Shown here: positions 19,658 through 61,497 of the stretch, in pieces | Layout: each line of letters opens with the position of its first letter | Numbering within the stretch: the first letter of the stretch is position 1 | From: Gammaproteobacteria bacterium | GTDB lineage: Bacteria; Pseudomonadota; Gammaproteobacteria; UBA4575 | Length of the DNA stretch: 64,000 nucleotides | Direction of reading: 5' to 3' | NCBI GenBank assembly: GCA_026706595.1 | Contig: JAPOYL010000009.1 | Span: 22,687 to 86,686 of the forward strand | Translations under genes and position numbers: made by a program | The notes under the pieces: model-generated | Seen by the model: the letters and a program-made list of their open reading frames with translations, nothing else | The model's database searches: none | What the model was told of the DNA's origin: nothing

Positions 19658-19987
19658 ATGACAGAAAATCCCTCAAAACCCCAATCAGTTCGAGCTCAAA
19701 AGCATGCTGCTTCTCCAGAACATTCTGAAAGTCGACTTCGACATGTGAAGGGATTTGATTTGTATCAGGCAGACAATACAGAGTCCTATGTCCTAGATTT
19801 TCACTTTCATACTTTACAGAATTATCCTGCAGACGAAATGACAACCCTTGTGGGAGATCATTTTCCTCAAATTTTGGAAAGGAAGGATCTTCAGAAGCTT
19901 GCCTATAAAATTCTAAAGACATTGCGAGAAGAGCTTCAAGCTCCTGTCGAGAAGTGGAACGATGATATTGATTCCTTGAAGATTTAA
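19658..19987 (+). CDS. Hypothetical protein (about 109 aa). A fully overlapping 133-aa antisense ORF (19641..20042) is an alternative.
   Basis: An AGGAAA RBS lies 7 nt upstream of the ATG. The call is ambiguous between strands. Confidence 0.35.
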   Translation: MTENPSKPQSVRAQKHAASPEHSESRLRHVKGFDLYQADNTESYVLDFHFHTLQNYPADEMTTLVGDHFPQILERKDLQKLAYKILKTLREELQAPVEKWNDDIDSLKI

Positions 19988-20022
19988 AGGATTCAAAATT
20001 AATAATATTGTTGTTATTCACC

Positions 20023-27249: not shown

Positions 27250-27744
<495 letters not shown>

Positions 27745-27760
27745 AACCCTTTTGTTCGAA

Positions 27761-33658: not shown

Positions 33659-34843
33659 ATGCTTGATGGATTGATAGCTTTGCCCTGGTGGGGATATGTC
33701 GTCCTCACACTCGCTCTCACACATCTCACCATCGTGTCGGTCACCGTATATCTGCATCGGTGCCAGGCACACTGTGCCCTGGACCTGCATCCACTGTCGG
33801 CGCATCTGTTCCGTTTCTGGCTCTGGCTGACTACCGGTATGGTGACCAAGGAGTGGGTCGCAATTCACAGGAAGCACCATGCCAAGACCGAGACAGCGGA
33901 AGACCCGCACAGCCCGCACGTGGTGGGTATTGGCACGGTGTTCTGGCAGGGTTCGGAGCTGTACCGGGAAGAAGCTGGAAATGCGGACACCCTGGAGCAC
34001 TATGGTCACGGCACGCCCGATGACTGGATCGAGCGCAACCTGTACACGCGCCTTTCCTCCATGGGAGTGGTACTGATGCTGGCCTTGAACCTGCTGTTGT
34101 TTGGTCTTCTCGGGGTCGTGATCTGGGCGGTACAGATGATCTGGATACCAGTCACCGCGGCAGGCGTCGTCAATGGCTTTGGCCATTACTGGGGATACCG
34201 CAACTTCGAAACCCCCGACGGCTCGACCAATATCATGAATCTCGGCATCCTGATCGGCGGTGAGGAGTTGCACAACAACCATCATGCCTACCCGGGTTCG
34301 GCGAAGTTTTCCAGCAAGCGCTGGGAACTTGACACAGGCTGGCTATACATTCGGATGCTGTCCTTTCTGAACCTGGCCAAGGTTCGCAGACGTGCTCCGC
34401 AACCCGTGCGTGTAGCCATCAAGGAAAAAATTGACCTCGAAACGGCCAAGGCCATCATTTCCAGCAAGCTGCATGTCATGGCTGATTATGCTCAGCACGT
34501 GACGCTGCCGACATTTCGCAGTGAATTGTCCGGCAACAAAATGCATGGGAAAAAACTGATGCGCCAGATGCGAACCGCGGTGATCCGTGAAAAATCCCGG
34601 CTGAAACCGCTGCATCAAAAACACCTGCAGGTGCTTTTGCAAGACAGCGAAGCCTTGCATACGGTGTATGAGTTTCAGGGGCGTTTGCAGCAATTGTGGA
34701 ACGAGACCTATGCCAGTCACGAGCGCCTGATCCAGGCCATCACACAGTGGTGCAAGGAAGCGGAGGCGACCGGGATCCGTGTCCTGCAGACCTTTGCGCA
34801 AAGCCTGAGAGGCTATGCATTGCAGCCCACTCCCGTAGGCTAG
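33659..34843 (+). CDS. Membrane fatty-acid desaturase
   Basis: Histidine boxes 'HRCQAH', 'HRKHH' and 'HNNHH' with TM helices. Confidence 0.8.
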   Translation: MLDGLIALPWWGYVVLTLALTHLTIVSVTVYLHRCQAHCALDLHPLSAHLFRFWLWLTTGMVTKEWVAIHRKHHAKTETAEDPHSPHVVGIGTVFWQGSELYREEAGNADTLEHYGHGTPDDWIERNLYTRLSSMGVVLMLALNLLLFGLLGVVIWAVQMIWIPVTAAGVVNGFGHYWGYRNFETPDGSTNIMNLGILIGGEELHNNHHAYPGSAKFSSKRWELDTGWLYIRMLSFLNLAKVRRRAPQPVRVAIKEKIDLETAKAIISSKLHVMADYAQHVTLPTFRSELSGNKMHGKKLMRQMRTAVIREKSRLKPLHQKHLQVLLQDSEALHTVYEFQGRLQQLWNETYASHERLIQAITQWCKEAEATGIRVLQTFAQSLRGYALQPTPVG

Positions 34844-37585: not shown

Positions 37586-38476
37586 TCACGCTGCAGTGAC
37601 CGTATTGCGTATCGTGCCAATTGACTCGATCTCGCATTCTACTACATCCCCCGGAAACAGGTATTCGGGCGGATTGCGCACATAGCCGACTCCGCTCGGG
37701 GTGCCGGTTGCAATGATATCCCCGGGTTCAAGCGACATGCTCCGGGACAATGTTTCGATCACGGTTGCAATGTCAAAGATCTGGTACTTCGTGTTCGAGT
37801 CCTGCTTGACCACACCGTTAACGCGGCACGTCAGGTTCAGCGTCTGCGGGTCCGGGATATCGTCCGCGGTGACGATCCAGGGACCCATGGGACAGGCTCC
37901 TGTCAGACTCTTGCCAATGAAGAACTGCTTGTGGCGTTTTTGCAGGTCACGCGCAGAGACATCATTGATCACCGTGTACCCGAACACATGCTGCAGGGCC
38001 TGCTCACGGCGGATTCCGCGACCGCCTTTACCGATAATGACACCCAACTCCACTTCCCAGTCCATCTTGTCAGAAACTTCTGCATCCACCGGAATGTCAG
38101 AATAGGGACCGTTCATACTGGAGACTGACTTGGTGAAGACGATGGGGTATTTCGGCAATTTCGGCGCTTCGACAATTTTGCGCGTGGTTTCCTCCACATG
38201 GTCCATGTAGTTCCAGCCAAGGCACATCATGTTCTGACGCGGTCTGGGGATGGGCGACACCAGTTCGACCGGAGCCAGTGCCATCCACTGTTCTCGAGGG
38301 GCCTGTCGTACCAGTTCGCACAACTGCGGCAGCAGTAGGTCACTTTGATCGATGACCTGCAGCAGGCTGTCTATTTCCGGCGACCAGCCGGGACAGGTTG
38401 CCGGTAACAGGATAGAATCACCTTGCACCACGGCAAGATGCGCTTCACTGTCGTGGTTGCAGGTTGCAAGCTTCAT
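37586..38476 (-). CDS. Fumarylacetoacetate-hydrolase (FAH) family protein
   Basis: An FAH-fold signature through 'FTKSVSSMNGPYSDIPVD...ELGVIIGK...INDVSARDLQ'. Confidence 0.75.
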   Translation of the reverse strand: MKLATCNHDSEAHLAVVQGDSILLPATCPGWSPEIDSLLQVIDQSDLLLPQLCELVRQAPREQWMALAPVELVSPIPRPRQNMMCLGWNYMDHVEETTRKIVEAPKLPKYPIVFTKSVSSMNGPYSDIPVDAEVSDKMDWEVELGVIIGKGGRGIRREQALQHVFGYTVINDVSARDLQKRHKQFFIGKSLTGACPMGPWIVTADDIPDPQTLNLTCRVNGVVKQDSNTKYQIFDIATVIETLSRSMSLEPGDIIATGTPSGVGYVRNPPEYLFPGDVVECEIESIGTIRNTVTAA

Positions 38477-38579
38477 TACGGAGTGTCACGGGTTTTGTGG
38501 GATGGGTATTGTAATCCCAGCCGGATGCCCGAAGCCAGATTTTGCGCAGTGTGGCGCAAGGCACCATGGGGTAATTGCC

Positions 38580-40709
38580 ATGAAGAAAATAGCGGTCCTT
38601 TTTATTGTCATCGCCCTGATCGCAGTCTTTTTCATTCTTGATTTGCACCACTACCTCGATTTCTCGTATATCAAATCCAAGCAACTCCAGTTTACCGACT
38701 ACTTTCACGCCTATCCTGTCAAGACGGCACTGATCTATTTCCTGATCTACCTGGTTGTAACCGGACTGTCCCTGCCGGGTGCGGCCGTACTCTCGCTGCT
38801 TGCCGGTGCGATCTTCGGGTTGCCGGTGGGCGCGGCTGTCGTGCTGCTTGCAGCCACTTGCGGGGCCACCATCGCATTCTGGCTGTCGCGCTACATTTTT
38901 CGTGATTTCGTGCAGAACCGATTCGGGGACAAGCTGGCGGCCGTGAATCGTGGCATTGAGAAGGATGGGGCGTTTTATCTGTTCACACTGCGACTGATCC
39001 CGATATTCCCGTTTTTCGTCATCAACCTCGTCATGGGTCTCACCCCCATGCGAACCTCCGTCTTTTTTGTCACCAGCCTGCTCGGCATGGTACCCGGATG
39101 CATCATTTACGTGAACGTCGGCACCCAGTTGGCCAGCCTGGAGTCCCTCGGCGGGATCCTGACGCCGGGCCTGCTGATCGCGTTGCTGCTGCTGGCGGTC
39201 TTCCCGTGGATCGCGAGAAAAGCCGTTGAGCTTCTTCGTGCGCGGCGGGTGTATGCCGGTTTCAGCCGGCCGAAAAAGTTTGACCGCAACCTGATCGTCA
39301 TCGGGGCGGGCTCGGGAGGTCTGGTCGCCGCGCTCATTGCCGCGACCGTCAAGGCCAGGGTCACGCTGGTCGAGAAAAACAAAATGGGGGGTGACTGCCT
39401 GAACACCGGCTGTGTACCTTCCAAGGCGCTCATACGTTCGGCAAAGTTTATCGCCCAGGCAAAACGGGCGCAGCAGTACGGCTGTGAGCCGGTACAGGTG
39501 GAATTTAATTTCAAGAAGATCATGCAGCGCGTACGGCGCGTCATCCAGACGGTGGAGCCTCATGATTCCGTGGAGCGCTATACGAAGCTGGGAGTCGAGT
39601 GCATACAGGGCGAGGCGGAACTGAAGGACCCGTGGACGGTTGCCGTGAACGGAACGACGCTGACGAGCAAGAGTATCGTCCTGGCGACCGGGGCCAGTCC
39701 CCTGGTTCCAGACCTGCCAGGCTTGGCGGAGGCGGGCTATCATACCTCGGACACCATCTGGGACATCGATGTCCTTCCCGAGCGCATGGTCATCCTGGGA
39801 GGGGGTCCGATCGGATGTGAGCTGGCGCAATGCTTTGCGCGGCTGGGCTCCAAAGTGACCCAGGTGCAGCGCAGATCCAGGATCCTGCCGCGTGAAGACC
39901 CGGAGATTGCGGCCATGGTCACGGAAAGTTTCCGGCGCGACGGCGTGCAGATACTGACCGAGCACGCCGCACAGGAGGTCGTGCAGGAACCGGACTCCAG
40001 AGTACTGATTTGCAGCCACGGGGGCGAGGAGGTCCGTATTCCGTTTGATACCATTCTGGTTGCAGTGGGGCGCAAGGTGACCTCCCACCATACCTGGGAC
40101 AAGCACCTGCAGATCGAGGTGCAGAAAAACGGGCAGCCTGAACTGAATGAATTTCTGCAAACCAGTTACCCGAACATCTATGCCTGTGGCGATCTCGCGG
40201 GCCCTTACCAATTCACGCACACGGCTTCCCACCAGGCCTGGTATGCCAGTGTCAATGCGCTGTTCGGGCGCTTCAGGAAATTCCGCGTGGACTACTCGGT
40301 CATCCCCTGGTGTACGTTCACAGAACCCGAAGTGGCAAGGGTCGGTCTGAATGAACAGGAGGCACAGTGCAGGGGGGTCGAACACGAAGTGGCATGCTAC
40401 GATATCTCCGATCTGGATCGCGCCATTGCCGATGAAGAGGCGCACGGGGTGGTCAAGGTACTGACGGTTCCCGGCAAGGACCGGATACTGGGGGTTACCA
40501 TTGTTGGTGAGCATGCCGGTGACCTGATCGCTGAGTATGTCTCGGCCATGAAGCACAAGCTGGGCCTGAACAAGATTCTCGGCACGATTCATATCTACCC
40601 GACGCTGGCCGAGGCGAACAAGTATGCTGCCGGTGCCTGGAAGAAGGCTCATGCCCCCGAGAAAGTGCTGAGTTGGGTAAAGAGGTATCATGCCTTTGAG
40701 CGCGGCTGA
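38580..40709 (+). CDS. Fusion protein: DedA/TVP38-TMEM64 membrane domain plus class-I pyridine-nucleotide-disulfide oxidoreductase (often mis-annotated as mercuric reductase)
   Basis: N-terminal multi-TM DedA region. FAD-binding 'VIGAGSGG'. Redox-active disulfide 'GGDCLNTGCVPSK'. NAD-binding 'ILGGGPIGCE'. Dimerisation His-Glu 'HIYPTLAE'. There is no C-terminal MerA Cys pair. Confidence 0.8.
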   Translation: MKKIAVLFIVIALIAVFFILDLHHYLDFSYIKSKQLQFTDYFHAYPVKTALIYFLIYLVVTGLSLPGAAVLSLLAGAIFGLPVGAAVVLLAATCGATIAFWLSRYIFRDFVQNRFGDKLAAVNRGIEKDGAFYLFTLRLIPIFPFFVINLVMGLTPMRTSVFFVTSLLGMVPGCIIYVNVGTQLASLESLGGILTPGLLIALLLLAVFPWIARKAVELLRARRVYAGFSRPKKFDRNLIVIGAGSGGLVAALIAATVKARVTLVEKNKMGGDCLNTGCVPSKALIRSAKFIAQAKRAQQYGCEPVQVEFNFKKIMQRVRRVIQTVEPHDSVERYTKLGVECIQGEAELKDPWTVAVNGTTLTSKSIVLATGASPLVPDLPGLAEAGYHTSDTIWDIDVLPERMVILGGGPIGCELAQCFARLGSKVTQVQRRSRILPREDPEIAAMVTESFRRDGVQILTEHAAQEVVQEPDSRVLICSHGGEEVRIPFDTILVAVGRKVTSHHTWDKHLQIEVQKNGQPELNEFLQTSYPNIYACGDLAGPYQFTHTASHQAWYASVNALFGRFRKFRVDYSVIPWCTFTEPEVARVGLNEQEAQCRGVEHEVACYDISDLDRAIADEEAHGVVKVLTVPGKDRILGVTIVGEHAGDLIAEYVSAMKHKLGLNKILGTIHIYPTLAEANKYAAGAWKKAHAPEKVLSWVKRYHAFERG

Positions 40710-40737
40710 TGCCGCCTGATTTGGGAGCACTCTGGAT

Positions 40738-41697
40738 ATGCATGAAACCCTGCATCTGCTGAAACAGTCCGACTTCCCCGAAATTCACCGGGCCCGGCTT
40801 GAGACCCTGCAGATCAACCTGGGCTACCGCTGCAACCAGACCTGTGTGCACTGCCATGTCAATGCCGGTCCGAACCGCAAGGAGATGATGTCTTCGGATA
40901 CGATCAACACCGTGCTGGGCTATCTGCAGGCACGTGATGTCCAGGTGCTGGATATCACCGGCGGGGCTCCGGAACTGCACCCGCAGTTCAGAAGCCTGGT
41001 CGAACAGGCCCGCGGACAGGTCGAGCGTGTGATCGATCGCTGCAACCTGACGATACTTGAGGAACCCGGGCAGGAATCACTTGCACAATTCCTGGCAGAG
41101 CAGCACGTCGAGATCGTGGCATCCCTGCCATGCTATCTTGAAGAAAATGTCGACCGCCAGCGCGGCAAGGGAGTGTTCCAGAAGAGCATACGGGCATTGC
41201 AACGGCTGAATGCGCTTGGCTACGGAACCGGTGATGCCCGCCTGAGTCTCACGCTGGTCTACAATCCACAGGGCCCGGATTTGCCACCGTCGCAGGAAGG
41301 CCTGGAGAGAGACTATCATGAATTCCTGCTCAAGTACGGGGTCAGGTTCGATCACCTGTTCACCATCACCAACATGCCGATCAAGCGGTTTGGCAGCATG
41401 CTGGTGAGCCAGGGAAAATTTGACGAATACATGCAGTTGCTGAGGGATTCCTATTGTGAAAAAAACCTGCAGGCGGTGATGTGCCGTTCCCTGATCAGCG
41501 TGGACTGGCGCGGCTACGTGTATGACTGTGACTTCAACCAGATGCTCGGCTTGCCGCTGCCGTATCACAACCAGGTGCGCACGCATTTGTCCGAGCTGAT
41601 GAGTGTCGATCTGGAGGGCAGCGAAATTGCCGTGGCGGACCACTGCTATGGCTGTACTGCTGGACAGGGGAGCAGTTGTGGCGGTTCGCTGAGCTAG
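40738..41697 (+). CDS. Radical SAM/Cys-rich-domain protein, ArsS-like (arsenosugar-biosynthesis radical SAM family)
   Basis: 'CNQTCVHCHVNAG' CxxxCxxC and a C-terminal Cys cluster 'CYGCTAGQGSSCGG'. Confidence 0.7.
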   Translation: MHETLHLLKQSDFPEIHRARLETLQINLGYRCNQTCVHCHVNAGPNRKEMMSSDTINTVLGYLQARDVQVLDITGGAPELHPQFRSLVEQARGQVERVIDRCNLTILEEPGQESLAQFLAEQHVEIVASLPCYLEENVDRQRGKGVFQKSIRALQRLNALGYGTGDARLSLTLVYNPQGPDLPPSQEGLERDYHEFLLKYGVRFDHLFTITNMPIKRFGSMLVSQGKFDEYMQLLRDSYCEKNLQAVMCRSLISVDWRGYVYDCDFNQMLGLPLPYHNQVRTHLSELMSVDLEGSEIAVADHCYGCTAGQGSSCGGSLS

Positions 41698-46762: not shown

Positions 46763-48067
46763 TTATTTCGCACAGGTTCTGAATCCGGCGAATACATCAT
46801 TGCGGTCAGGACCATAGTAGTTGCGCCATGTGTTGTGGATCATGCGACTGCGGGTTACCCAAGCACCACCCCGCAGCACTTTGGTCTGACCGAACAACGG
46901 TCGGGAATATTCCGTGTAGCAGTCCGGTGAGAAGCCTGGATAGGGCTGGAAAGTCGAGTCCGTCCACTCCCACACATTGCCAAGCATCTGACGGCAGCCC
47001 AGTGCGCTGTCACCTGCCGGATGCGCGTGGACGCCAGCTGGGCCGGAACCCCTAGCATCCAGATTGGCACAATCCGCACTGGCCTCATCTCCCCAGGGAA
47101 ACTGCCTCTTGCAGGGCATGCCTGCAGTCACATCCTCTGGATTGCAAGCAGCTGCAAATTCCCATTCCGCCTCGGTCGGCAAGCGCCGGTTTGCCCATCT
47201 GCAAAACGCTTGGGCTTCATACCAGCTGACATGAATCACGGGATGGGCCAGTGCCAGAGCATGCCACTGGTCAAACCGTCGGGTGTGCCAGGTGTGATCG
47301 GAATCCTTTCTCCAGTACACCGGACATTCAAGACCCCGTTCCTTGCGCCATTGCCAACCCGCATCGCACCAGTATTCCCGCGTTGTATAGCCGCCGGCCT
47401 CCACAAACTCGACATAGTCTTGGTTGCTTACCGCGCAGCGGGCAATACGAAAAGGGGCCAGCGTGATCCTGTGTGCCCATTTCTCATTGTCAAACGTGAA
47501 CTCGCCGTTTCTTTCCGCACCCAGAAGGAACGGTCCGCCTGCAACTTCGATATCTTCATTTTCAGGAACGCTGCCGCCGTCAGCAGGTGTTTGATGGCGC
47601 ATGTAGGCCGGTGCGGGGTAGGCGAGAGTCTGTCGTGTGTAGGTCAGTGCCTCGCCATGCATGTCTTCATGGAACAGGGCCAGCAGATAGAAGTATTTTG
47701 CAGAATCTTCCAGCCCGATTTCGTCCAGTTGGGAAACCTCTGCCGACAGTACCTCATCCATGTACTGGAGTGTGTCTTCCATACTGGGTAGCGGCAGATC
47801 CCACCGCGTTTCGTGCGGGATGGAGATGGAGTCAAACAGCCTGTCTGAATCCGGAAGAATTTCCGGTCGTTGGCCTAGGTGGCGCAGCACCCAGAGTTCG
47901 TGGAAATACGCGGTGTGGGCAATTTCCCAGCACAAGGGGTTGGTGGTGGAAAGCCTGGGGCCGAGGAGTTGCTGTGAGTCCAGCCCCTCGATCAGGGTCA
48001 GGGTCCTGGAGCGCGTATCCCGCAAGGCGGCTTCTAGGTTTTCTGCGGTAGCGTCTCTGTAGTGCAT
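46763..48067 (-). CDS. EgtB/SenA-like sulfoxide (selenoxide) synthase homolog (DinB_2 plus FGE-sulfatase domains)
   Basis: An N-terminal DinB-like four-helix region followed by an FGE-like C-terminal domain (about 434 aa). There is no egtD neighbour. Confidence 0.7.
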   Translation of the reverse strand: MHYRDATAENLEAALRDTRSRTLTLIEGLDSQQLLGPRLSTTNPLCWEIAHTAYFHELWVLRHLGQRPEILPDSDRLFDSISIPHETRWDLPLPSMEDTLQYMDEVLSAEVSQLDEIGLEDSAKYFYLLALFHEDMHGEALTYTRQTLAYPAPAYMRHQTPADGGSVPENEDIEVAGGPFLLGAERNGEFTFDNEKWAHRITLAPFRIARCAVSNQDYVEFVEAGGYTTREYWCDAGWQWRKERGLECPVYWRKDSDHTWHTRRFDQWHALALAHPVIHVSWYEAQAFCRWANRRLPTEAEWEFAAACNPEDVTAGMPCKRQFPWGDEASADCANLDARGSGPAGVHAHPAGDSALGCRQMLGNVWEWTDSTFQPYPGFSPDCYTEYSRPLFGQTKVLRGGAWVTRSRMIHNTWRNYYGPDRNDVFAGFRTCAK

Positions 48068-48148
48068 CAGCTTTTCGTATGCATCCTGTTTGGATCACGA
48101 AATATACCCTGTTATCGATACAATAACGTAATACCATTCACTTTTATT

Positions 48149-49102
48149 ATGAAAATTGTCCTGATCACCCCGGCATTGCCCCGTTCCCGTTCTGGAAACC
48201 GCGCCACGGCTGCCCGTTGGAAAAACATCCTGACGGAACTGGGTCACAGGGTAGATGTGAAAGTTGATTTTGCAGGAGGCCAGTATGATGCCATGGTTGC
48301 GTTGCATGCATGGCGTAGTGCAGCCTCCATACGTCGCTTCCATACGCAATTCCCCGAGTGTCCGCTGATCGTGGCGTTGACCGGCACCGACATCTATAAA
48401 TTTATCCGGTCTTCACCACAGCCCACCCTGTACTCGATCCGTGCGGCAGACAGGTTGGTCACCCTGCACGAGCTTGCGGGTTTGGCAATCCCCGCAGAGT
48501 ACAGGGACAAGGTTTCAGTCATCCACCAGTCCGCCAAACCAGTGATGCGCAAACCGGCAAGGCGGAAAAACAGTTTCAATGTCTGTGTGATCGGTCATTT
48601 GCGGGAGGAAAAGGATCCGCTGCGGGCAGCCTACGCGGTTCGCAGGCTGCCCGCGGAATCCCGCATCCGCATCCGCCAGTACGGCAAGGCCCATACCCCG
48701 GTGTGGGCAGAACGGGCCGAAAAAGAGATGCGGGAGAACTTCCGGTATCGCTGGTTCGGCGAAGTCCCGCACTGGCAGGTACGCAGGGTGTACGCGAGTG
48801 CCGATGTGATGGTGCTCAGTTCCCGGATGGAAGGCGGTGCCAATGTGATTTCAGAGGCCTGTGTCGCGGGTCTTCCGGTCATTGCCTCGGAGATCGCAGG
48901 CTCGGTGGGACTGCTGGGCGAAGAGTACCCCGGCTATTATGCAACCGGTGATACCCGGGCGCTGCGCGAACTGCTGCTTCGGGCCGAGGCGGACCACGCC
49001 TGGCTGAGGGTATTGCAAGCGGCCTGCCAGGGGAAAGCCGGGCTGTTTTCCTATGCGAGGGAGAAGAGCCGCTGGAGGATATTGATGAACCGTGTTGCCT
49101 GA
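48149..49102 (+). CDS. Family-1/GT4-type glycosyltransferase, SenB-like (putative selenosugar synthase)
   Basis: An E-x7-E motif region 'EGGANVISEA' in a GT-B fold. It lies between the SenA-like gene and the SelD-fusion gene. Confidence 0.6.
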   Translation: MKIVLITPALPRSRSGNRATAARWKNILTELGHRVDVKVDFAGGQYDAMVALHAWRSAASIRRFHTQFPECPLIVALTGTDIYKFIRSSPQPTLYSIRAADRLVTLHELAGLAIPAEYRDKVSVIHQSAKPVMRKPARRKNSFNVCVIGHLREEKDPLRAAYAVRRLPAESRIRIRQYGKAHTPVWAERAEKEMRENFRYRWFGEVPHWQVRRVYASADVMVLSSRMEGGANVISEACVAGLPVIASEIAGSVGLLGEEYPGYYATGDTRALRELLLRAEADHAWLRVLQAACQGKAGLFSYAREKSRWRILMNRVA

Positions 49103-49433
49103 GACCGCCACGGCATATCTGATTCTGCGGGTGCCAGTCGGTCAAGCTAAAAAACCTTTAAGATCAGTCACTTGTGCACTTATCAAAGTATTTGATTTTT
49201 CCCATAATGAGGTTTTAGTTGTGCCCTGGGAAAGCTCCACGTAGCCTAGGCATTGTGGATGTTTTATTGTTGTTTTGTTGGCAGACCTGATAAGCAACAG
49301 TTCGCAGATCGACTTGGCGTAACTTCACAATCATGTCCCGGTCGCAGGCTACTGCGGAGGTGGGACAACCTGAACGTCACAATGTACGAATCGGTGCGAT
49401 AAAACATCACCAGTAAACTGGTCTGCCGGAAAA

Positions 49434-49459
49434 GCCCGCTTCTCGCGGGCTTTTCTTTT
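49434..49459. terminator. Bidirectional rho-independent terminator
   Basis: A GCCCGC-ttctc-GCGGGC stem-loop followed by TTTTCTTTT, about 20 nt beyond the stop of the SelD-fusion gene. Confidence 0.55.
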
Positions 49460-49478
49460 GGGTGTCGTCAGATGCCTT

Positions 49479-51761
49479 TCAGCGGGGCTGGTCAAGGTTG
49501 ATATGCACGGGTTCCAGCGTGTCGCTTTGGGGCAGCACCTGTCCCACGATACAGGCATGCCGGTAGCCCAGCTCGTGCAATTCCGCGATGCAGGCATCGG
49601 CATGCCTGCCAGGTAGGGTGGCGAGCAAGCCCCCGGAAGTTTGCGGGTCAAACAGCAACGGGTAGTGCGGATGCTGAGTAGCTGCTTCGGGATTTTTGAC
49701 TGCGCGGCGCAGGCGTACATTGGAAGGCTGCAGGGAACTGAATATTCCCATCTCGATAGTTTCGGCAGCGCCGTCGAGAACCGGCAGCATGTTCAAGTCA
49801 ATCGTGATGTCCAGCTGGGCCGCACGTACCATCTCCAGCAAGTGACCCAGCACGCCAAAGCCCGTGATGTCGGTGCACGCATGCACGTCATACTTGTACA
49901 GGCATTGCGCGGCCATGTGATTTGAAACGAGCATGCAATCTATGGCATCCACGATCCAGCGACCCCTGGCCTTGCCCCGCATCTCTGCTGCAAACAAGGT
50001 GCCCGTGCCAACCGGTTTGGTGACGATGATGACATCGTCAACCTGCATCCCCCCTTTGGCAAGCAGTCGTTCTTTTTCGATCAGCCCGGTAACACTGAGC
50101 CCAAAGGCAAGCTCGGCCCCCTCGCTGGAGTGTCCCCCGACCAGCGCCGCCTTGTGCTGATCCAGGACCCGCACCGCACCGTCCATGATTTGCAGAAGCT
50201 GCTGCTCAACCACGTTCTCTTTTCCGTACGGGATGGTTGCAATGGCCATGGCCGCCTGTGCCTCTGCACCCATCGCAAACACATCGCTGAGGCTGTGGTT
50301 AGCGGTGACCTGTCCAAATACAAACGGGTCATCGATAAACGCCCGGAAATAATCGACGGACTGAACCTGTACTTTGCCGGGGGGTACGGTCACGGCCGCG
50401 GCATCATCCGGTGCATCCAGTCCGAGCAGCACGTCCTCACGAAGGTGGGGCGACAGCTGGTTGATGACGCGGCTTAGGACATTGCTGCCAATTTTTGCGC
50501 CGCATCCGCCACAACGCATGGCAATTGCAGAGATTTCCTCGAGCGTATCGCGGCTTGCCAGTCTGCTGTCCACGAGGTCGTCATGCTTTTCTTGCATTTC
50601 AGGGAGACGGTTGTACTTGTGCATGAATCTCCGGTCGATCAGATCCTTGAGCTTCCAGACCCAGGCACCTTCAGTGGCTAACGCTCCACGGGAGGCCACT
50701 GCATACTTGTTGCCGGTACTGACCAGACTCAGGAAGCTGATTTGTGGCACATGTTCTTTCAGGCGTCTGTTTTCCAGTGCACGCCTCAGATTCTTGTACA
50801 GCGGCTTCCCCTGCCGAACCGCAAACACACCGGACTTGGGCCGCGGATAATCGGTCACCGCAGCGATGTCACCTGCTGCAAAAACGTCACTGTGGGACAC
50901 TGACTGCAGGGAACTGTTTACCTGGATGAACCCTCGCTCATCCACGGCAAGCCCGGATTCCCTATACCAGGTTGGCGCGGATGCATGGGTTGCCCAAATT
51001 GTCGCGTCCGCGTGCAAGGAATTACCGGAATCCAGCTGCAGGGTATGGGCGTTAGCTTCCATGACCATGCATGCCTTGTGTATCGTAATCTGACGCTCTG
51101 CCAGAATGCGCATGAAGCGGTGCTGTACGGAGGGGTTATGTGTAGGCAATACGGTGCCGTTGCTGCAGATGATGTGAAAACGGAGCTTGTCCACAGGCAG
51201 GTCTTGCTGGCGTAGTAACTTGTGCAGGTGATACTGCGTGGACAGGGCGACCTCGACACCGCCAGCACCTGCGCCCACCACGGCCATCTGGTAATCGCCC
51301 TTGCGTGTGAGCACTTCATCCATGATGGCGTCCCAGCCCCGTAGAAACCGGTGGATGGGCTTGACTCCCAGTGTGTGTTCTCTTGAGCCGGGAACCTCTG
51401 TGAAGGAAGGTGTTGATCCCGTGTTAATGGACAGTACATCGTAATGTACGGGCGGCCGGTCGCCGCACAGAACATACTTGTTTTCCAGGTCCAAAGAGTT
51501 GGCATTTACATGGAACAGGCGTGCTCCGGCAAACCGGGCCAAGGGCTGCAAATCGATATGGCTTTCGTCAAAACTGTAATGACCCGCGATGTAGCCCGGC
51601 AACATCCCGGAATAAGGGGTGTGTACATCGCGGCTGATCAGGGTGATCTGCAGGCCCGCAATGGGCTTCATGCCGAATCGTTTGAGCACGGCAACGTGGC
51701 TGTGGCCTCCCCCGATCAACACCAAGTCCTTGATCACCGTGCTGTTTTTCGGTTTCTGCAA
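49479..51761 (-). CDS. selD: Fusion protein: NDH-2-like FAD/NAD(P) oxidoreductase plus selenide,water dikinase SelD (SenC-like)
   Basis: N-terminal 'LVLIGGGHSHVAV' and 'VVGAGAGGVE' Rossmann motifs. C-terminal SelD with 'RCGGCGAKIG', 'VDYF', 'GGHSSEG' and an AIR-synthase-like C-terminal domain. Confidence 0.85.
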   Translation of the reverse strand: MQKPKNSTVIKDLVLIGGGHSHVAVLKRFGMKPIAGLQITLISRDVHTPYSGMLPGYIAGHYSFDESHIDLQPLARFAGARLFHVNANSLDLENKYVLCGDRPPVHYDVLSINTGSTPSFTEVPGSREHTLGVKPIHRFLRGWDAIMDEVLTRKGDYQMAVVGAGAGGVEVALSTQYHLHKLLRQQDLPVDKLRFHIICSNGTVLPTHNPSVQHRFMRILAERQITIHKACMVMEANAHTLQLDSGNSLHADATIWATHASAPTWYRESGLAVDERGFIQVNSSLQSVSHSDVFAAGDIAAVTDYPRPKSGVFAVRQGKPLYKNLRRALENRRLKEHVPQISFLSLVSTGNKYAVASRGALATEGAWVWKLKDLIDRRFMHKYNRLPEMQEKHDDLVDSRLASRDTLEEISAIAMRCGGCGAKIGSNVLSRVINQLSPHLREDVLLGLDAPDDAAAVTVPPGKVQVQSVDYFRAFIDDPFVFGQVTANHSLSDVFAMGAEAQAAMAIATIPYGKENVVEQQLLQIMDGAVRVLDQHKAALVGGHSSEGAELAFGLSVTGLIEKERLLAKGGMQVDDVIIVTKPVGTGTLFAAEMRGKARGRWIVDAIDCMLVSNHMAAQCLYKYDVHACTDITGFGVLGHLLEMVRAAQLDITIDLNMLPVLDGAAETIEMGIFSSLQPSNVRLRRAVKNPEAATQHPHYPLLFDPQTSGGLLATLPGRHADACIAELHELGYRHACIVGQVLPQSDTLEPVHINLDQPR

Positions 51762-51818
51762 AGCTTATCCTGCCTAGATCAATTCAGATAGGCCCGAAAG
51801 CCCTGCGGCCAATCCGGT

Positions 51819-53417
51819 TCATACCGTTACAGCCTTTTCGGGAAGTGTCTCCTGGAAGTAGTTCTCCAGAAATTCATCGAAAGACACCGTGTCGGAAGCT
51901 TCGATCTCGAGCTGTTTCTCCACGGACTGCTGTACAGCATCGGTGAAAAACTCCGTGTCTTGCGGACTCAAGGCATGCTTGCATACACGGGCTTGATGTA
52001 TTTTGGAATGACGGCTCGCCATTTCGAAGAATCCTTCCTCGGCGGTGCGCATCTCATGCAGGATTCTTGCAGAAGGTGTCAATGCGGCCTCTTTCATGGC
52101 TGCAGCTTGCTGTCGTAATGCTGCACTGTAGTCATCACAGGAGTTTGCCTCATCCAGTATTTCACAGATGGCCTGCATTTCATGCAGGATTTCCTGTCCC
52201 CACTCCTGCAGTGAAACCTGCTTTTGGCCTTGCGTTAATTTGAGTGCCGGGTCACGCCCATAGTGCGCTGTGTTGATTTCATTGCTGTCAATTGCCTGCC
52301 GTTCCGCTGCATCGATGCGCGGGCTTTCCTGCAATAGGCAAAAAATCATAAAGGCTTCCAGAAAATGAAGCTGATCACAATTGATGCCCAGCGGTTCGAA
52401 TATGTCCAGGTCCAAGGAGCGTAACTCAACGTACTGGACACCACGCTGGCGAAGGGCATGGACCGGCTTTTCATTGTTCAAAGAGGGCTGCTTTGGTCGC
52501 ACAGTACTGTAGTACTCATTCTCAATTTGCAAAAAATTGGTGTTGAGCTGCCGGTATTCTCCCGTCATCTTGACACCAATCCTTTCATATTTCGGACATG
52601 ATGTTTCAATCGCCTGAGTCAGGCACTGGATATACGAATCCAGGCTGTCGTAGCAGGCCTTGATTCCAATCTCACTTTCCAGTTTGTTGTTGTACCCGAT
52701 ATCTCCCATGCGCAATGATGTCGCATGAGGGAGATAGTATGTAGTGGCATCAAACTGCTGCAGTACGCCGGGTTGTCCGTCTACAAAGGATTTGCAGATT
52801 GCGGGTGATGCACCAAACAGGTAGTAGATTAACCAGCCGTAACGTTGCAGATTCCGGGTCAAAGCAAAATACCGGTCGTCGATGAAATCCCGCTGCGGAG
52901 CATTGCGGGGGAAAAGGTCGCTGTAATACGGCCAGAATGGGCCTGGCAGCGAATAATTGAAATGGATGCCTGCAATTACCTGCATCATCTTGCCATAACG
53001 ATGGCCGAGACCACGGCGATACACGGTCTTCATCATGCCCAGATTCGACGGGCCGTAATTTGCAATCGGAATGCTCGCCTCGCCGTCGATTACGCACGGC
53101 ATGCTTGCACCCCACAAAGACTCGTGCCCGAGCTGGCCATAGACAAACTGATGAATTTTCTCCAAAAATCCCAGGGTCGTGGCAATTCCCTGTAGGGGTG
53201 GGGTGATCAGTTCCAGCAGGGCTTCCGAGTAGTCGGTCGTGATATAGGGGTTGGTGAGCGCGGAGCCCAGCGAAGACGGATGTGGTTGTTGGGAAATTTT
53301 CCCGTCACTGTCCACGCGTAACGATTCCTTTTCCAGGCCGATTTTGCCACCAGACAACAAATGTTGTTGCCTGTCCTGAGTGATCCTTCTGAGGTGGCTG
53401 TGTAGCTGGTCGTACAT
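51819..53417 (-). CDS. gshA: Glutamate-cysteine ligase (E. coli type)
   Basis: 'GLEKESLRVDSDGKISQQPHPSSLGSALTNPYITTDYSEALLELITP'. Confidence 0.88.
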   Translation of the reverse strand: MYDQLHSHLRRITQDRQQHLLSGGKIGLEKESLRVDSDGKISQQPHPSSLGSALTNPYITTDYSEALLELITPPLQGIATTLGFLEKIHQFVYGQLGHESLWGASMPCVIDGEASIPIANYGPSNLGMMKTVYRRGLGHRYGKMMQVIAGIHFNYSLPGPFWPYYSDLFPRNAPQRDFIDDRYFALTRNLQRYGWLIYYLFGASPAICKSFVDGQPGVLQQFDATTYYLPHATSLRMGDIGYNNKLESEIGIKACYDSLDSYIQCLTQAIETSCPKYERIGVKMTGEYRQLNTNFLQIENEYYSTVRPKQPSLNNEKPVHALRQRGVQYVELRSLDLDIFEPLGINCDQLHFLEAFMIFCLLQESPRIDAAERQAIDSNEINTAHYGRDPALKLTQGQKQVSLQEWGQEILHEMQAICEILDEANSCDDYSAALRQQAAAMKEAALTPSARILHEMRTAEEGFFEMASRHSKIHQARVCKHALSPQDTEFFTDAVQQSVEKQLEIEASDTVSFDEFLENYFQETLPEKAVTV

Positions 53418-57245: not shown

Positions 57246-57614
57246 ATGCAAAAACCACTCGATCGTTCGATCCATGTTGTCTTGACCCTTGTGTTCGCTG
57301 CCAGCGTATTCACTATGACCTCCGCCGTTTTCGCGGATGAAAGCGTTGTGGAAAATGGCAAGAAAGTAGCCTTTGACCGCAAAGCGGGAAACTGCCTGTC
57401 CTGTCACTTGATTGAGGGCGGCGAAGCTCCCGGAAATCTGGGGCCGCCCCTGGTAGCGATGAAAGCCCGTTTCCCAGACAGGCAAAGGCTTCGAGACATC
57501 ATCTGGGACATCACCACATCGCGCCCAGAAGCCCTGATGCCGCCATTTGGAAGGTACAAGATTATCAGCGAACAGGACATCGATGACATTGTCGAGTATC
57601 TGTACACGCTATGA
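57246..57614 (+). CDS. soxX: Monohaem cytochrome c SoxX
   Basis: A signal peptide and a single 'CLSCH' haem site, first gene of the sox operon. Confidence 0.75.
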   Translation: MQKPLDRSIHVVLTLVFAASVFTMTSAVFADESVVENGKKVAFDRKAGNCLSCHLIEGGEAPGNLGPPLVAMKARFPDRQRLRDIIWDITTSRPEALMPPFGRYKIISEQDIDDIVEYLYTL

Positions 57615-57654
57615 CTATGTATATTGCGTTTTGAGATTTTACGAGGTCGACATT

Positions 57655-58104
57655 ATGAGCCTTACACGAAGAACAGTAATCAAGAATACGGCGGTTGCTG
57701 GTTTGGCAGCCATGGTTGGATTACCCAAACTATTGCTTGCCGCCTGGCCCGAGAATGCCTTCAAGGCTAAATCCATGGAGGACGCCCTGACTGCACTGCT
57801 GGGTACAACTGAATCGGAACAAGGTGATATTGTAATCAAGGCGCCCGAAATTGCTGAGAATGGTGCCGTGGTGCCTATCACGGTCACCAGCAATATCGCA
57901 AATACGGAGTCCATTTCCATTATCGTGCCGCATAACCCCCAGCCGCTGGTTGCAAGTTTTGACCTGAAAGACAGTGAGCCGTTTGTGTCGGTACGCATCA
58001 AGATGGCAAAAACATCTGACATTGTGGCTTTGGTGAAATCAGGCGACCAGTTGTTCAAGACCGCGAAGGAAGTCAAGGTGACCATTGGTGGGTGCGGCGG
58101 TTAA
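57655..58104 (+). CDS. soxY: Sulfur-carrier protein SoxY
   Basis: Tat signal 'TRRTVIK' and a C-terminal 'VTIGGCGG'. Confidence 0.9.
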   Translation: MSLTRRTVIKNTAVAGLAAMVGLPKLLLAAWPENAFKAKSMEDALTALLGTTESEQGDIVIKAPEIAENGAVVPITVTSNIANTESISIIVPHNPQPLVASFDLKDSEPFVSVRIKMAKTSDIVALVKSGDQLFKTAKEVKVTIGGCGG

Positions 58105-58128
58105 CCCATAGACAGAAGGTAAGTTGAT

Positions 58129-58443
58129 ATGGCAGAGACGATCAAGATTCGTGCCAAGAGCACAGACGATATTGTCACAGTAAAAGTGCTTGTTACGCAC
58201 CCTATGGAAACCGGGACACGCAAGGACAGCAGGACCAACAAACTCGTCCCCGCCCATTTCATAAAAGAAATCAAAGCCGAGGCTCACGGTAAAGTAGTTT
58301 TCCATGCAAACACCGGCGCGGGCGTGGCAAGAAACCCTTACTTCGCATTCAAATTCAAGGGCGCGAGTCCTGGAGACAGCATCAAGATCAGCTGGATTGA
58401 TAATCAAGGCAACGTGGATTCGAGAGAGGCCGTAATCAAATGA
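58129..58443 (+). CDS. soxZ: SoxZ
   Basis: 'IKIRAKSTDDIVTVKVLVTHPMETG', 104 aa. Confidence 0.9.
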   Translation: MAETIKIRAKSTDDIVTVKVLVTHPMETGTRKDSRTNKLVPAHFIKEIKAEAHGKVVFHANTGAGVARNPYFAFKFKGASPGDSIKISWIDNQGNVDSREAVIK

Positions 58444-58475
58444 TGGTCACCGGTCGTTGTTTCGAGGGAGGAAGA

Positions 58476-59312
58476 ATGAAAAATGCATTGATTGCCGCTG
58501 TCCTGGTATTGGCAGGTTCGTTGTTCGTGCAAGCACTGTCAGCAAGTCCCGAGGACGATGTGAGGTTGTATCAGGACTACTTCAAGAAACGCTTTCCAAG
58601 TATCGATTTTCAAGAATTTGCAAATGGCGTATATGCAATCAGTGCCCAGCAGCGTGAAAACTGGGAGGCGATCGAAGAATTCCCGCCTTATGAGCCGTTT
58701 ATCGAACGCGGTGAGTCCATGTGGAATGCCAAGTTTTCAAACGGAAGATCCTATGCGGACTGCTTTCCGAACGGGCCGGGCTCTCAGCACTTGTATCCGC
58801 AATGGAGCAAAGAGCAAGGAAAGGTCATCACTCTAGCGCTTGCGATCAATCAATGCAGAGAGGCAAACGGAGAGCAGCCCTTGAAATACATGAAGGGGCC
58901 AATAAATGACATTTTGGCGTACATGGCCTTCGAAAGCCGTGGGCAGTTGACCAATGTGGCAATACCTGTGGATGACCCGCGTGCGCTGGAAGCGTATGAG
59001 AAAGGCAAGGAGTTCTATTTCACGCGCAGAGGGCAGTTGAATTTTTCCTGCGATCAGTGCCACTTTCCTAACTCCGGCATGAATCTGCGTTCTGATGTGT
59101 TGAGCCCGGCCGTAGGACAAACTACGGGCTGGCCGGTATACCGTTCCGGGTGGGGGGCTCTAGGAACATTGCACCGCCGCTACAGTGGTTGTCTCAAGCA
59201 GGTCCGAGCCAAACCCTTTGCCGCGCAAGGTGAGGAATATCGCAACCTGGAATACTTTCACACATACATGAGTAACGGGATTGGATTAAACGGCCCCGCT
59301 GCCCGGAAATGA
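58476..59312 (+). CDS. soxA: Dihaem cytochrome c SoxA
   Basis: A signal peptide, 'CDQCHFPNSG', and a GGGAGG RBS before the ATG at 58476. Confidence 0.8.
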   Translation: MKNALIAAVLVLAGSLFVQALSASPEDDVRLYQDYFKKRFPSIDFQEFANGVYAISAQQRENWEAIEEFPPYEPFIERGESMWNAKFSNGRSYADCFPNGPGSQHLYPQWSKEQGKVITLALAINQCREANGEQPLKYMKGPINDILAYMAFESRGQLTNVAIPVDDPRALEAYEKGKEFYFTRRGQLNFSCDQCHFPNSGMNLRSDVLSPAVGQTTGWPVYRSGWGALGTLHRRYSGCLKQVRAKPFAAQGEEYRNLEYFHTYMSNGIGLNGPAARK

Positions 59313-59367
59313 TGAATCCGTGAAGCTTGTATTCATACGGCAGGTCTAAACCAGGGGGAACCAGGCA

Positions 59368-59700
59368 ATGGGAGTACTGCTCAAATACATTTTAATTTCG
59401 ATGGCCGCCACGGGCATATTGCTGTCTGCCGGTTTACTCGCAGATGTATCGGCTTACGATGATACCGAATTTGTGAATTTGCTCAGTACGGCAAAGTCGG
59501 CACAAAAAAAAGCAAGCTCTGTAGGGGGTGAGTGGCGCGATGTCGGGAAGTTCATCAAGGAGGCAGAGCAGGCTGCGGCAGATGGAGATTTCGATCGGGC
59601 GAAAAAGCTCGCACAGAAAGCCAAAACCCAGAGCGAACTCGGATACCAGCAGGCCGTTTCGCAAAAAGGAAAAGCACCCAGCCCATCCTACCTGCGATAG
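59368..59700 (+). CDS. Small secreted protein between soxA and soxB (possibly SoxK-like)
   Basis: A signal peptide followed by a Lys/Ala-rich helical tail. The assignment rests on position only. Confidence 0.35.
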   Translation: MGVLLKYILISMAATGILLSAGLLADVSAYDDTEFVNLLSTAKSAQKKASSVGGEWRDVGKFIKEAEQAAADGDFDRAKKLAQKAKTQSELGYQQAVSQKGKAPSPSYLR

Positions 59701-59730
59701 GGCCACCCGGGTCCAGTCGTAAATCGAGCC

Positions 59731-61497
59731 GTGTACCTGACGCGCCGTCAATTCCTGTCATTATTGAATGCAGCGGCAGTAGCAGGAATATTGCCATCGT
59801 CCCGCGGCCTGAAGGCTGGCAGGTCCACCGACGTATACGAGGTTCCCAAAAAGGGCAATGTGAGGCTTCTTCACATCACGGATTGCCACGCCCAGCTACT
59901 CCCTGTTTATTTTCGTGAGCCCAGCGTCAATATCGGTGTTGGAAACGCCCGCGGCAAGGCTCCTCACCTGGTGGGCACCCACTTGCTGGACCGGTTCGAT
60001 CTGAATCCTGCCAACCGCATGGCCGTGCACGCTTTCACCTTTCTCGATTTCATTGATGCGGCAAAGAAATTTGGCAAGGTGGGGGGCTTTGCACATCTGT
60101 GCACACTGGTAAAAAAACTGAGACACGAGTTTGGTGAAGAAAACACGCTGTTGCTGGATGGCGGCGACACATGGCAGGGATCAGGGACCGCTTACTGGAC
60201 ACGCGGCAGGGACATGGTCAATGCGTGCAATCTTCTAGGTGTTGATGTGATGACGGGCCACTGGGAGTTTACTTATCACGATAAGGAGGTGATGGAGAAC
60301 ATCCAGGCGTTCAACGGTGAGTTCATCGCACAGAATGTCAAACTGACAGAAGAAGGCTTCTTTGAAGGTCAGCCCGCCCATGATGAAACTACCGGGCACA
60401 TATTCAAACCCTATACGATCAAAGAACTGGGAGGTGTGCGCATTGCTGTCATTGGACAGGCCTTCCCCTACACACCCATCGCCAACCCTCGACGGTTCAT
60501 ACCCTATTGGTCATTTGGCATTCGGGACGATGAAATGCAGAAAGTCGTAAACGCCATACATGAGAACGAAAAGCCGGCTGCCGTGGTGCTGATTTCCCAT
60601 AACGGGATGGACGTTGACTTGAAGATGGCCAGCCGCGTAACGGGTCTGACCGCGATCTTTGGAGGCCACACGCATGACGGAGTGCCTCAGGCGGTCGAAG
60701 TGAATAATGCGAATGGCGTGACCTTGGTAACGAATGCAGGATCGAATGCAAAATTTCTGGGCGTCATGGATCTTGATATCAAAAACAACAGAGTATCCGG
60801 CTATAGCTACCGGTTGCTGCCGGTATTTTCCAACCTTCTGGATGCTGATCCGGAGATGTCAGCGTACATAGAGAAGGTCAGAAATCCCTATCTCGACCGG
60901 CTGGAGGATAAGCTGGGCGTGGCGGATTCCTTATTGTACCGGCGGGGGAATTTCAACGGTTCGTTTGACCAAGTGATCTGCGATGCCCTGATTGAGCAGC
61001 TGGACACCCAGATAGCGCTGTCACCCGGCTTTAGGTGGGGAGTATCCGTACTGCCGGGTGATGACATCACGATGGAGCACGTCCTGACACAAACCTGCAT
61101 GACTTATCCCGAAACATACACCAGCGGCATGAGCGGTGAAACCATCAAGCTCATACTCGAAGATGTGTGTGACAATTTGTTCAATCCGGACCCGTACTAT
61201 CAACAAGGGGGAGACATGGTCCGCTTGGGCGGTATGAACTATGTGTGTGACCCGACAGCTTCAGCCGGAAACCGGATCTCGGATATGACCTTGGACAGTG
61301 GAGAAAAAATAGAAGCGAACAAGACATATCAGGTAGCGGGGTGGGCGACTGTCGGGTCTAAATCTCAGGGGCCTCCAGTCTGGGACGTCGTCGCACAATA
61401 TATACGCGAACATAAAAGCATCAGGATATCCAGGCTCAACACTCCCAAACTGAAGAATCTGGGAGCCAATCCAGGCATCAGTGATTACCGGGTCTGA
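59731..61497 (+). CDS. soxB: Thiosulfohydrolase SoxB (5'-nucleotidase/metallophosphatase family)
   Basis: Tat signal 'TRRQFLSLL' and metallophosphatase motifs 'ITDCHAQ', 'GGDTWQG' and 'GGHTHD'. Confidence 0.9.
   Translation: MYLTRRQFLSLLNAAAVAGILPSSRGLKAGRSTDVYEVPKKGNVRLLHITDCHAQLLPVYFREPSVNIGVGNARGKAPHLVGTHLLDRFDLNPANRMAVHAFTFLDFIDAAKKFGKVGGFAHLCTLVKKLRHEFGEENTLLLDGGDTWQGSGTAYWTRGRDMVNACNLLGVDVMTGHWEFTYHDKEVMENIQAFNGEFIAQNVKLTEEGFFEGQPAHDETTGHIFKPYTIKELGGVRIAVIGQAFPYTPIANPRRFIPYWSFGIRDDEMQKVVNAIHENEKPAAVVLISHNGMDVDLKMASRVTGLTAIFGGHTHDGVPQAVEVNNANGVTLVTNAGSNAKFLGVMDLDIKNNRVSGYSYRLLPVFSNLLDADPEMSAYIEKVRNPYLDRLEDKLGVADSLLYRRGNFNGSFDQVICDALIEQLDTQIALSPGFRWGVSVLPGDDITMEHVLTQTCMTYPETYTSGMSGETIKLILEDVCDNLFNPDPYYQQGGDMVRLGGMNYVCDPTASAGNRISDMTLDSGEKIEANKTYQVAGWATVGSKSQGPPVWDVVAQYIREHKSIRISRLNTPKLKNLGANPGISDYRV

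Follow-up and report, generated by a model that had tools for sequence, protein, structure and literature searches.

Positions 46763–53417 of a 64 kb stretch of DNA from an uncultured gammaproteobacterium (contig JAPOYL010000009.1) carry four genes, three of which are read here as a senABC locus for the biosynthesis of selenoneine in a host that also carries sox genes. We put the probability of this reading, which was made from sequence comparisons, at about 0.85. The whole 64 kb stretch is referred to as the window, and all negative results given for the window apply to these 64 kb. The assignment of SenA, SenB and SenC is based on the cut-offs of curated hidden Markov models (HMMs), on active-site residues that have been tested in homologues and on a conserved gene neighbourhood, and the chemistry is proposed by analogy with the SenABC proteins of Variovorax paradoxus. 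The sen system was described in 2022, when 827 clusters were known (Kayrouz et al., 2022; bioRxiv 10.1101/2022.04.13.486033). In the window the senA, senB and selD homologues all lie within 5 kb (46763–51761) and are thus co-localized as in a sen cluster. The HMM scores of the locus proteins are far above chance and the same gene set recurs in relatives.

The 434-residue senA product scores 509.8 bits against the NCBIfam equivalog model for SenA (NF041186; cut-off 420) and 342.4 bits against the EgtB model TIGR03440, below the cut-off of 360. For calibration of NF041186, V. paradoxus SenA (VpSenA), the ovoselenol-pathway enzyme OvsA and EgtB from M. thermoresistibile (MtEgtB) gave 517.8, 426.2 and 317.2 bits, respectively, and the window protein, at 509.8 bits, ranks with the genuine SenA. 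Because the score of OvsA just exceeds the cut-off, the model alone is unable to exclude OvsA. Active-site motifs are therefore needed to separate selenoneine from ovoselenol loci, and automated annotation with NF041186 will name OvsA proteins selenoneine synthase.

In an alignment, the iron-binding triad (H51, H133 and H137) and the catalytic tyrosine (Tyr384) are retained. His85 and Tyr418 occupy the positions of Arg87 and Asp416 of EgtB, thiol-binding residues for which all SenA proteins have His and Phe/Tyr instead (bioRxiv 10.1101/2022.04.13.486033). Tyr387, Asn416 and Tyr417 align with Met401, Gln430 and Ala431 of OvsA, which bind free histidine and steer selenium to C5; the triple substitution M401Y/Q430N/A431F turns OvsA into a hercynine-using, C2-selenylating enzyme (Kayrouz et al., 2024; bioRxiv 10.1101/2024.04.10.588772). 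The window enzyme is thus of the hercynine type and lacks the OvsA motif. The residues by which hercynine binding is recognized, Y366, N395 and F396 of VpSenA, have their counterparts here, although position 417 is Tyr instead of Phe. Clustering with canonical EgtB had been named in the original prediction among the outcomes that would speak against it; with a score below the EgtB cut-off and both Arg87 and Asp416 replaced, the protein does not resemble a canonical EgtB in these respects.

The mechanically called senB reading frame spans 48062–49102 on the plus strand with a GTG start at 48062. Since the HMM match begins at residue 32, and an ATG at 48149 opens the sequence MKIVLITPALP…, the start was revised to 48149, which leaves a divergent spacer of 81 bp to senA. 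The product scores 395.2 bits against the SenB model TIGR04348 (cut-off 300), and a search of the PDB returned SenB structures only (171 bits). The equivalents of VpSenB residues N20, T23, H58, R61, T83, T85, D86, R155, K158, E231 and E239 are all retained. These residues matter by mutagenesis in VpSenB, in which K158 is catalytic, N20, H58, R61, T83, T85 and R155 form the selenophosphate pocket and N20, T23 and E231 the sugar site (PMC10891094). There are two differences, Glu for V157 and EGGANV (N235) for EGGAHV; at each of the two, most of 30 SenB homologues agree with the window protein, and the differences are therefore not peculiar to this locus. The senA/senB spacer shows about 80% identity over 64 nt in three close relatives (loci L082–84; the loci of relatives are referred to by number). 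No consensus sigma-70 site was called in its 81 bp, and it is presumed from its geometry to be a shared promoter region.

The senC product is a fusion. Its N-terminal part matches TIGR03169 ('Nterm_to_SelD') at 479 bits (cut-off 310) and its C-terminal part matches TIGR00476 (SelD) at 290 bits (cut-off 125). Membership of TIGR04369 ('fusion_not_SelD') was considered and rejected, as the score of 471.7 bits lies below the cut-off of 700. The structure was modelled with AlphaFold using 55 homologues (pLDDT 84, pTM 0.85) and its halves were compared with known structures in Foldseek. The C-terminal half matches SelD of Aquifex aeolicus and Escherichia coli, with TM scores of 0.75–0.86 to PDB entries 2YYE, 3U0O and 2ZAU, and the N-terminal half matches type II NADH dehydrogenases (NDH-2; TM scores of 0.83–0.87) ahead of SQR (0.70–0.75). 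In the active-site loop of the SelD domain, an alignment of 55 fusion homologues shows no variation at C417, C420 or K423, and a set of 114 shows none at the two cysteines. The N-terminal domain contains glycine motifs for FAD and NAD(P)H and a single conserved cysteine, C99 (93%). A disulfide-reductase mechanism was rejected for this domain, which has no CxxxxC motif, only the one conserved cysteine and a fold nearest to that of NDH-2.

These results bear out most of what the original prediction had proposed for the individual genes. All four open reading frames were confirmed with their coordinates, only the start of senB being moved. The EgtB-fold enzyme was identified as SenA by its HMM scores and its His/Tyr substitutions, the GT-B glycosyltransferase as SenB rather than a generic enzyme by TIGR04348, its PDB matches and its catalytic residues, and the oxidoreductase-fused SelD as SenC by its two family models and its NDH-2 and SelD folds.

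By analogy with V. paradoxus, the SelD domain of SenC would convert selenide into selenophosphate at the expense of ATP. SenB would glycosylate selenophosphate with a UDP-sugar as donor, most likely UDP-GlcNAc, and would then hydrolyse the Se–P bond to give the 1-seleno-sugar. SenA, as a predicted Fe(II)/O2 enzyme, would join the selenosugar to C2 of hercynine to form a selenoxide, from which the sugar would be eliminated to yield selenoneine. The N-terminal FAD/NAD(P)H domain of SenC, which is NDH-2-like, would most likely supply the CxxC loop in the SelD part with selenium in reduced form, and the suggestion in the original prediction that it may regenerate selenide in cis appears reasonable. 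The senA and senB genes are divergently transcribed, and senC may form a transcript together with gshA.

The neighbourhood of the locus was compared in relatives. In the window it is flanked by djlA and an RND pump on one side and by ampD and groESL on the other. The closest relatives, with SenA proteins that are 82 and 68% identical, lie on contigs of 1.7–2.7 Mb from metagenome-assembled genomes (MAGs) and have the gene order groESL–ampD–gshA–senC–<senB senA>–djlA, the relative with 68% identity, L086, being the exception at gshA. A trio of fused senC, senB and senA recurs in L002, L006, L035, L082–86, L088, L089 and L091. We also inspected 24 more distant loci, from several phyla, in which senB lies beside senA. 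In 15 of the 24 senB and senA are divergent, so this is the commonest layout in the sample, and the mixed gene orientation that had been singled out as a notable difference is not one. About half of these loci have selD near senB/senA, in the fused form in L002, L006 and L035 and mostly as plain selD in the betaproteobacterial loci. The fusion had likewise been regarded as notable; it was already on record in 2008 (Zhang et al., 2008; PMC2398784) and is covered by a dedicated NCBIfam model, TIGR03169.

Four more distant homologues of the fused SelD (57–60% identical) were examined, of which those in L088, L089 and L091 adjoin senB/senA. In L088, L089 and L090 an egtD gene is directly divergent from senC (the L089 EgtD scores 401.8 bits against TIGR03438; cut-off 291). 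Three of the four loci have an ABC transporter (binding protein, ATPase and PhnE-like permease), which in L091 is placed between senA and djlA. Scans of the binding proteins from L089 and L091 assigned both to TIGR04553, 'putative selenate ABC transporter'. The window locus is a minimal three-gene version of the sen locus, and its lineage seems either to have lost egtD and the transporter or never to have gained them.

Genes for hercynine supply and for other selenium traits were searched for in the window. Domain and HMM scans of plausible reading frames of at least 150 residues found no egtD, selA, selB, selU or ovsM-type domain, and tblastn with two gammaproteobacterial EgtD sequences gave no match in the window. 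No tRNA, and hence no tRNA-Sec, and no Rfam family were found in the window, which agrees with the original statement that selA, selB, tRNA-Sec and selU are not visible there. The further suggestion of the original prediction, a SelD dedicated to small-molecule selenium chemistry, is on 64 kb of sequence no more than conceivable. Nor did the window contain egtC, egtE or a selenate ABC transporter. Extension of the window ends onto neighbouring sequence found no selenium or egt genes. A homologue search with the alphaproteobacterial EgtD of L006, which is 46% identical to gammaproteobacterial EgtDs, showed no co-occurrence with close relatives of the window SenA among the listed matches of at least 56% identity, a result that with so distant a query carries no weight. 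Most published sen clusters lack egtD in cis (bioRxiv 10.1101/2022.04.13.486033), so its absence from the window is not unusual, and hercynine would have to be taken up or be made by means of an egtD located outside the window.

Several observations weigh against a selenoneine locus. No egtD was found in the window, nor in the 10 kb on either side of the locus in five close relatives, and sister lineages keep egtD and the putative selenate transporter next to senC, where the window has neither. Over its full length the window SenA is 40.5% identical to VpSenA, 41.9% to OvsA and 39.4% to MtEgtB, and is therefore no closer to VpSenA. OvsA, not VpSenA, is its top match in the PDB. The predicted SenA assignment rests on a handful of active-site positions, among which Tyr417 differs from the Phe of VpSenA. 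Finally, the function of the domain fused to SelD has been called 'not fully clear' (PMC2398784).

The distribution of egtD and the transporter, both of which are missing near the locus in the window and in its five closest relatives, would fit a sen locus that has degenerated or been re-purposed as the genome became reduced and egtD was lost. Such a locus would make only a selenosugar, or its SenA would act on an imported or different imidazole to give another product. One window protein has an identical copy encoded on a MAG contig of only 1.85 Mb, for which reason the host genome may be small, and the position equivalent to Q405 of OvsA is Leu in the subclade of the window protein and Trp in most SenA proteins. 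We consider such a locus unlikely. The three genes are intact, their products share 82–89% amino-acid identity with the closest relatives and 63–74% with more distant ones, and the catalytic residues are all retained, which argues for purifying selection on a complete pathway. The Leu variant also occurs in L006, L088 and L089, all of which have an adjacent egtD, and most published sen clusters are in any case without egtD in cis.

The PDB result meant that the ovoselenol pathway, which the original prediction had not considered, had to be weighed as well. The window enzyme would then be an OvsA that selenylates C5 of free histidine, with the N-pi methyltransferase OvsM encoded elsewhere. In the PDB search OvsA scored 316–324 bits, MtEgtB 262 and VpSenA 233. 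A neighbour-joining tree of 65 sequences of this enzyme family (NHISS), which is rough and carries no support values, has two SenA groups, one betaproteobacterial and including VpSenA, the other spanning phyla and including the window protein; OvsA branches at the base of the latter, in agreement with the published statement that OvsA recently diverged from within SenA. Published OvsA clusters are mostly from aquatic gammaproteobacteria that have no egtD, a gene not found in the window either, and ovsM can be unlinked (bioRxiv 10.1101/2024.04.10.588772). The ovs clusters of Halomonas utahensis and Marinobacter (OvsA/OvsM with senBC; Kayrouz et al., 2024; PDB entries 8U41, 8U42 and 8UX5) share with the window a gammaproteobacterial host, a senBC cassette and an enzyme of similar length and 42% identity. 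The switch positions, however, are Tyr/Asn/Tyr and of the hercynine type, and within the PDB result itself the engineered OvsA-YNF chain (8UX5) outscores wild-type OvsA against the window protein (324 versus 316 bits). Against the SenA HMM the window protein exceeds OvsA by 84 bits (510 versus 426). In the phylum-spanning group, every member with an adjacent SenB has the His/Tyr-Asn-aromatic signature, and sister proteins with the same hercynine-type motif adjoin a verified egtD in L006, L088 and L089. No OvsM-like methyltransferase was found in the window, in which the methyltransferases present are BioC and RsmD-like. An ovoselenol locus is accordingly very improbable.

That the enzyme is instead an EgtB for ergothioneine, using gamma-glutamylcysteine from GshA in the manner of EgtA and unrelated to the SelD and glycosyltransferase genes, would suit a gshA gene 3.7 kb away, a TIGR03440 score 18 bits short of its cut-off and MtEgtB as the second-best family in the PDB search, but is scarcely credible given the loss of the thiol-binding Arg87/Asp416 pair, a score well over the SenA cut-off, a SenB gene adjoining enzymes of the window type in 24 other loci across phyla, a housekeeping-type ligase that adjoins sen genes only in the closest relatives, and no egtC, egtD or egtE in the window.

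Among the closest known systems is V. paradoxus senABC (Kayrouz et al., 2022; SenA, PDB entries 8K5I and 8RYZ; SenB, PDB entries 8FBX and 8JJN). It and the window locus have the same three functions (a SelD homologue, a TIGR04348 enzyme and an EgtB-like selenoxide synthase), the His/Tyr substitutions, the Y/N/aromatic motif, the SenB catalytic residues and senB beside senA, and neither has egtD in cis. They differ in that the SenA proteins are about 40% identical and the window SenA belongs to the second, phylum-spanning group that includes the OvsA branch. Phe of VpSenA is replaced by Tyr417, and Trp by Leu at the equivalent of OvsA Q405. The sampled betaproteobacterial loci have mostly plain SelD, whereas the window has the fusion. 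If the reading is correct, selenoneine, an antioxidant that is of interest in diet and toxicology, gains a further producer lineage, a sulfur-oxidizing gammaproteobacterial one with an apparently small genome. What is known of the pathway is unchanged; this is a sound and ordinary annotation of a layout that is common among relatives.

The fourth gene, gshA, lies upstream of senC on the same strand. Its product scores 563.6 bits against TIGR01434 (cut-off 393). The two genes are separated by 57 bp, in which no terminator-like site was found, so co-transcription is possible. Adjacency of gshA and senC is kept only in the close relatives L082–85; in L086 two genes intervene, and gshA was not found in sen loci L002, L006, L035 and L088–L091 or in any of the 24 more distant loci. 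This limitation to the nearest relatives points to conserved housekeeping synteny of one lineage, and gshA is probably a neighbour rather than a component of the pathway. Glutathione does matter in the chemistry by which selenite is reduced, yet conservation does not support a functional link of gshA. The original prediction had compared the gene with the EgtA step of mycobacterial ergothioneine synthesis: the adjacency is real, but the enzyme is an E. coli-type GshA (PF04262/TIGR01434) of a different family that adjoins sen genes only in the nearest relatives, and the analogy was rejected. The mycobacterial EgtA–E system (EgtB-I, PDB entry 4X8B) resembles the window in its NHISS fold, three-histidine triad, catalytic tyrosine, presumed hercynine acceptor and nearby gamma-glutamylcysteine ligase. 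It differs in retaining Arg87/Asp416 and egtC, egtD and egtE, and in the type of its ligase.

The fused SenC has a longer history than the sen system. Ndh–SelD fusions were described in 2008, with CxxC in all of them, and accounted for about 40% of the Cys-type SelDs from ocean metagenomes (Zhang et al., 2008; PMC2398784); a later study confirmed that no other SelD fusion is as common (Mariotti et al., 2015; PMC4561486). The window SenC shares with them the NADH-dehydrogenase-like N-terminal domain (TIGR03169), the Cys-type SelD, the CxxC motif and the aquatic setting. Those papers treat the fusion as a general source of selenophosphate for selenocysteine and selenouridine, whereas in the window and in every inspected relative it lies in a sen cluster or beside egtD: this holds for all ten distinct relatives' loci that carry the fusion (12 when three near-identical ones are counted). 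These neighbours provide an old fusion of unclear function with a pathway context that is open to testing. The fusion is the usual form in this gammaproteobacterial clade. For at least 23 of 58 clusters of fused SelD proteins on contigs of at least 10 kb, the longest contig was equal in size to that of a cluster of SenA homologues, which was read as a shared contig. A search of the searchable literature library found no paper linking the Ndh–SelD fusion to sen clusters. A more far-reaching view, which we regard as less likely than not, is that a very large sen clade of aquatic and mainly gammaproteobacterial members uses Ndh–SelD as its dedicated SenC. The NDH-2-like domain would use NAD(P)H to reduce oxidized selenium, for example Se(0) or GS–Se adducts, and deliver the selenide to the CxxC loop. 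If so, a substantial share of the marine 'SelD' signal would represent selenoneine synthesis and not selenoprotein or selenouridine synthesis, and in the apparently small genome of the window's host the enzyme might serve no other selenium trait.

Table 1. Features of the senABC region, the remainder of the window and selected relatives' loci.
Feature	Position (nt)	Strand	Description
senA	46763–48067	−	434 aa; selenoneine synthase, predicted non-haem iron selenoxide synthase; Pfam DinB_2 + FGE-sulfatase; NCBIfam NF041186
senA/senB divergent intergenic region	48068–48148		81 bp between start codons; presumed shared promoter region
senB	48149–49102	+	317 aa; predicted GT-B selenosugar synthase (Se-glycosyltransferase); Pfam Glycos_transf_1; TIGR04348
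Conserved non-coding element	49180–49465	+	Convergent senB/senC gap; promoter-like site, core, hairpin + T-run
Promoter-like site of element	49180–49208	+	TTATCA-17-CATAAT
Core of element	49304–49325	+	Invariant 22-mer
Hairpin + T-run of element	49432–49461	+	Right behind senC
senC	49479–51761	−	760 aa; predicted NDH-2-like flavoprotein::SelD; Pyr_redox_2 + AIRS + AIRS_C; TTG start with AGGA upstream
senC SelD domain	about 49506–50519	−	Cys-type SelD
SelD active-site loop	50493–50513	−	C417-G-G-C420-G-A-K423; CxxC…K
senC N-terminal domain	about 50613–51728	−	NDH-2-like
gshA	51819–53417	−	532 aa; E. coli-type glutamate-cysteine ligase; Glu_cys_ligase (PF04262); TIGR01434
Polyketide/PUFA-type synthase	26–4684	+	Window start lies inside the gene; ER-KR-ACP-KS
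Phosphopantetheinyl transferase	5720–6457	−	Near the synthase
Low-GC patch	18000–20958		41% versus about 57%
Transposase gene	20023–20958	−	IS1595 family; end of low-GC patch
Glutathione-cycle and sox genes	27665–29479; 31570–33528; 57547–61497
Desaturase/transposase reading frame	33659–34843		Fatty-acid desaturase domain joined to ISL3 transposase fragment
VTT-reductase/radical SAM gene pair	38352–41697	+	Two adjacent genes
Sister-locus extras	L088 6932–7900; L089 3690–7797; L090 3397–7475; L091 13393–16393		egtD and/or ABC transporter
L035 VTT-reductase and radical SAM genes	L035 4434–6578; 16120–17109		Rhodocyclaceae
L086 nucleotidyltransferase gene	L086 7792–8583		PF00483; between senC and senB
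L086 DJ-1/PfpI gene	L086 11425–12102		After senA
L093 synthase	L093 10952–20596		3214 aa; on 1.85 Mb contig

The convergent gap between senB and senC contains a conserved element with a promoter-like site, the invariant core GCAGATCGACTTGGCGTAACTT and a terminator-type hairpin and T-run, which could terminate senC too (coordinates of all features are given in Table 1). The element is 86% identical over 280 nt in L082–84. Its core is kept in L086 and in the metagenome contig L087, each time 3′ of senB, and the element is not present in L085. RNAalifold, run on three sequences only, gave 68 pairs, nine of them with compensatory changes, and neither an Rfam family nor a conserved reading frame was found for the element. 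It is a candidate small RNA of about 250 nt that may or may not belong to the sen system. L086 has two genes that the window lacks, a nucleotidyltransferase gene between senC and senB, which could supply a sugar nucleotide, and a DJ-1/PfpI gene after senA. The possibility that the gap holds a decayed NTP_transferase gene, as in L086, was rejected, as tblastn gave no match in the gap.

A pair of adjacent genes lies about 5–9 kb from senA in the window and in L082–85. The first encodes a fusion of a DedA/VTT membrane domain with a flavoprotein that resembles glutathione/mercuric reductases and has a CLNTGC redox motif, the start probably being M77. The second encodes an ArsS-type radical SAM '(seleno)protein' (TIGR04167, 462 bits; cut-off 300). 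In the Rhodocyclaceae locus L035 the VTT-reductase gene directly follows senB–senC on the same strand, with the radical SAM gene 7 kb away. The pair, seen in these two lineages only, is possibly tied to selenium uptake or reduction.

The remainder of the window gives some indication of the host. It includes a sox sulfur-oxidation cluster with soxY, soxA and a soxB-like gene (soxZ was seen in L092), from which the host is taken to be a sulfur oxidizer. A gamma-glutamyltranspeptidase gene and a hydantoinase/oxoprolinase-like gene of the glutathione cycle are also present. The low-GC patch ends in the IS1595-family transposase gene, and the reading frame that joins a desaturase domain to an ISL3 transposase fragment suggests a gene disrupted by insertion. 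The window begins inside a very large synthase of the polyketide or polyunsaturated fatty acid (PUFA) type, with a phosphopantetheinyl transferase gene nearby, and the matching synthase on the 1.85 Mb contig is 3214 residues long.

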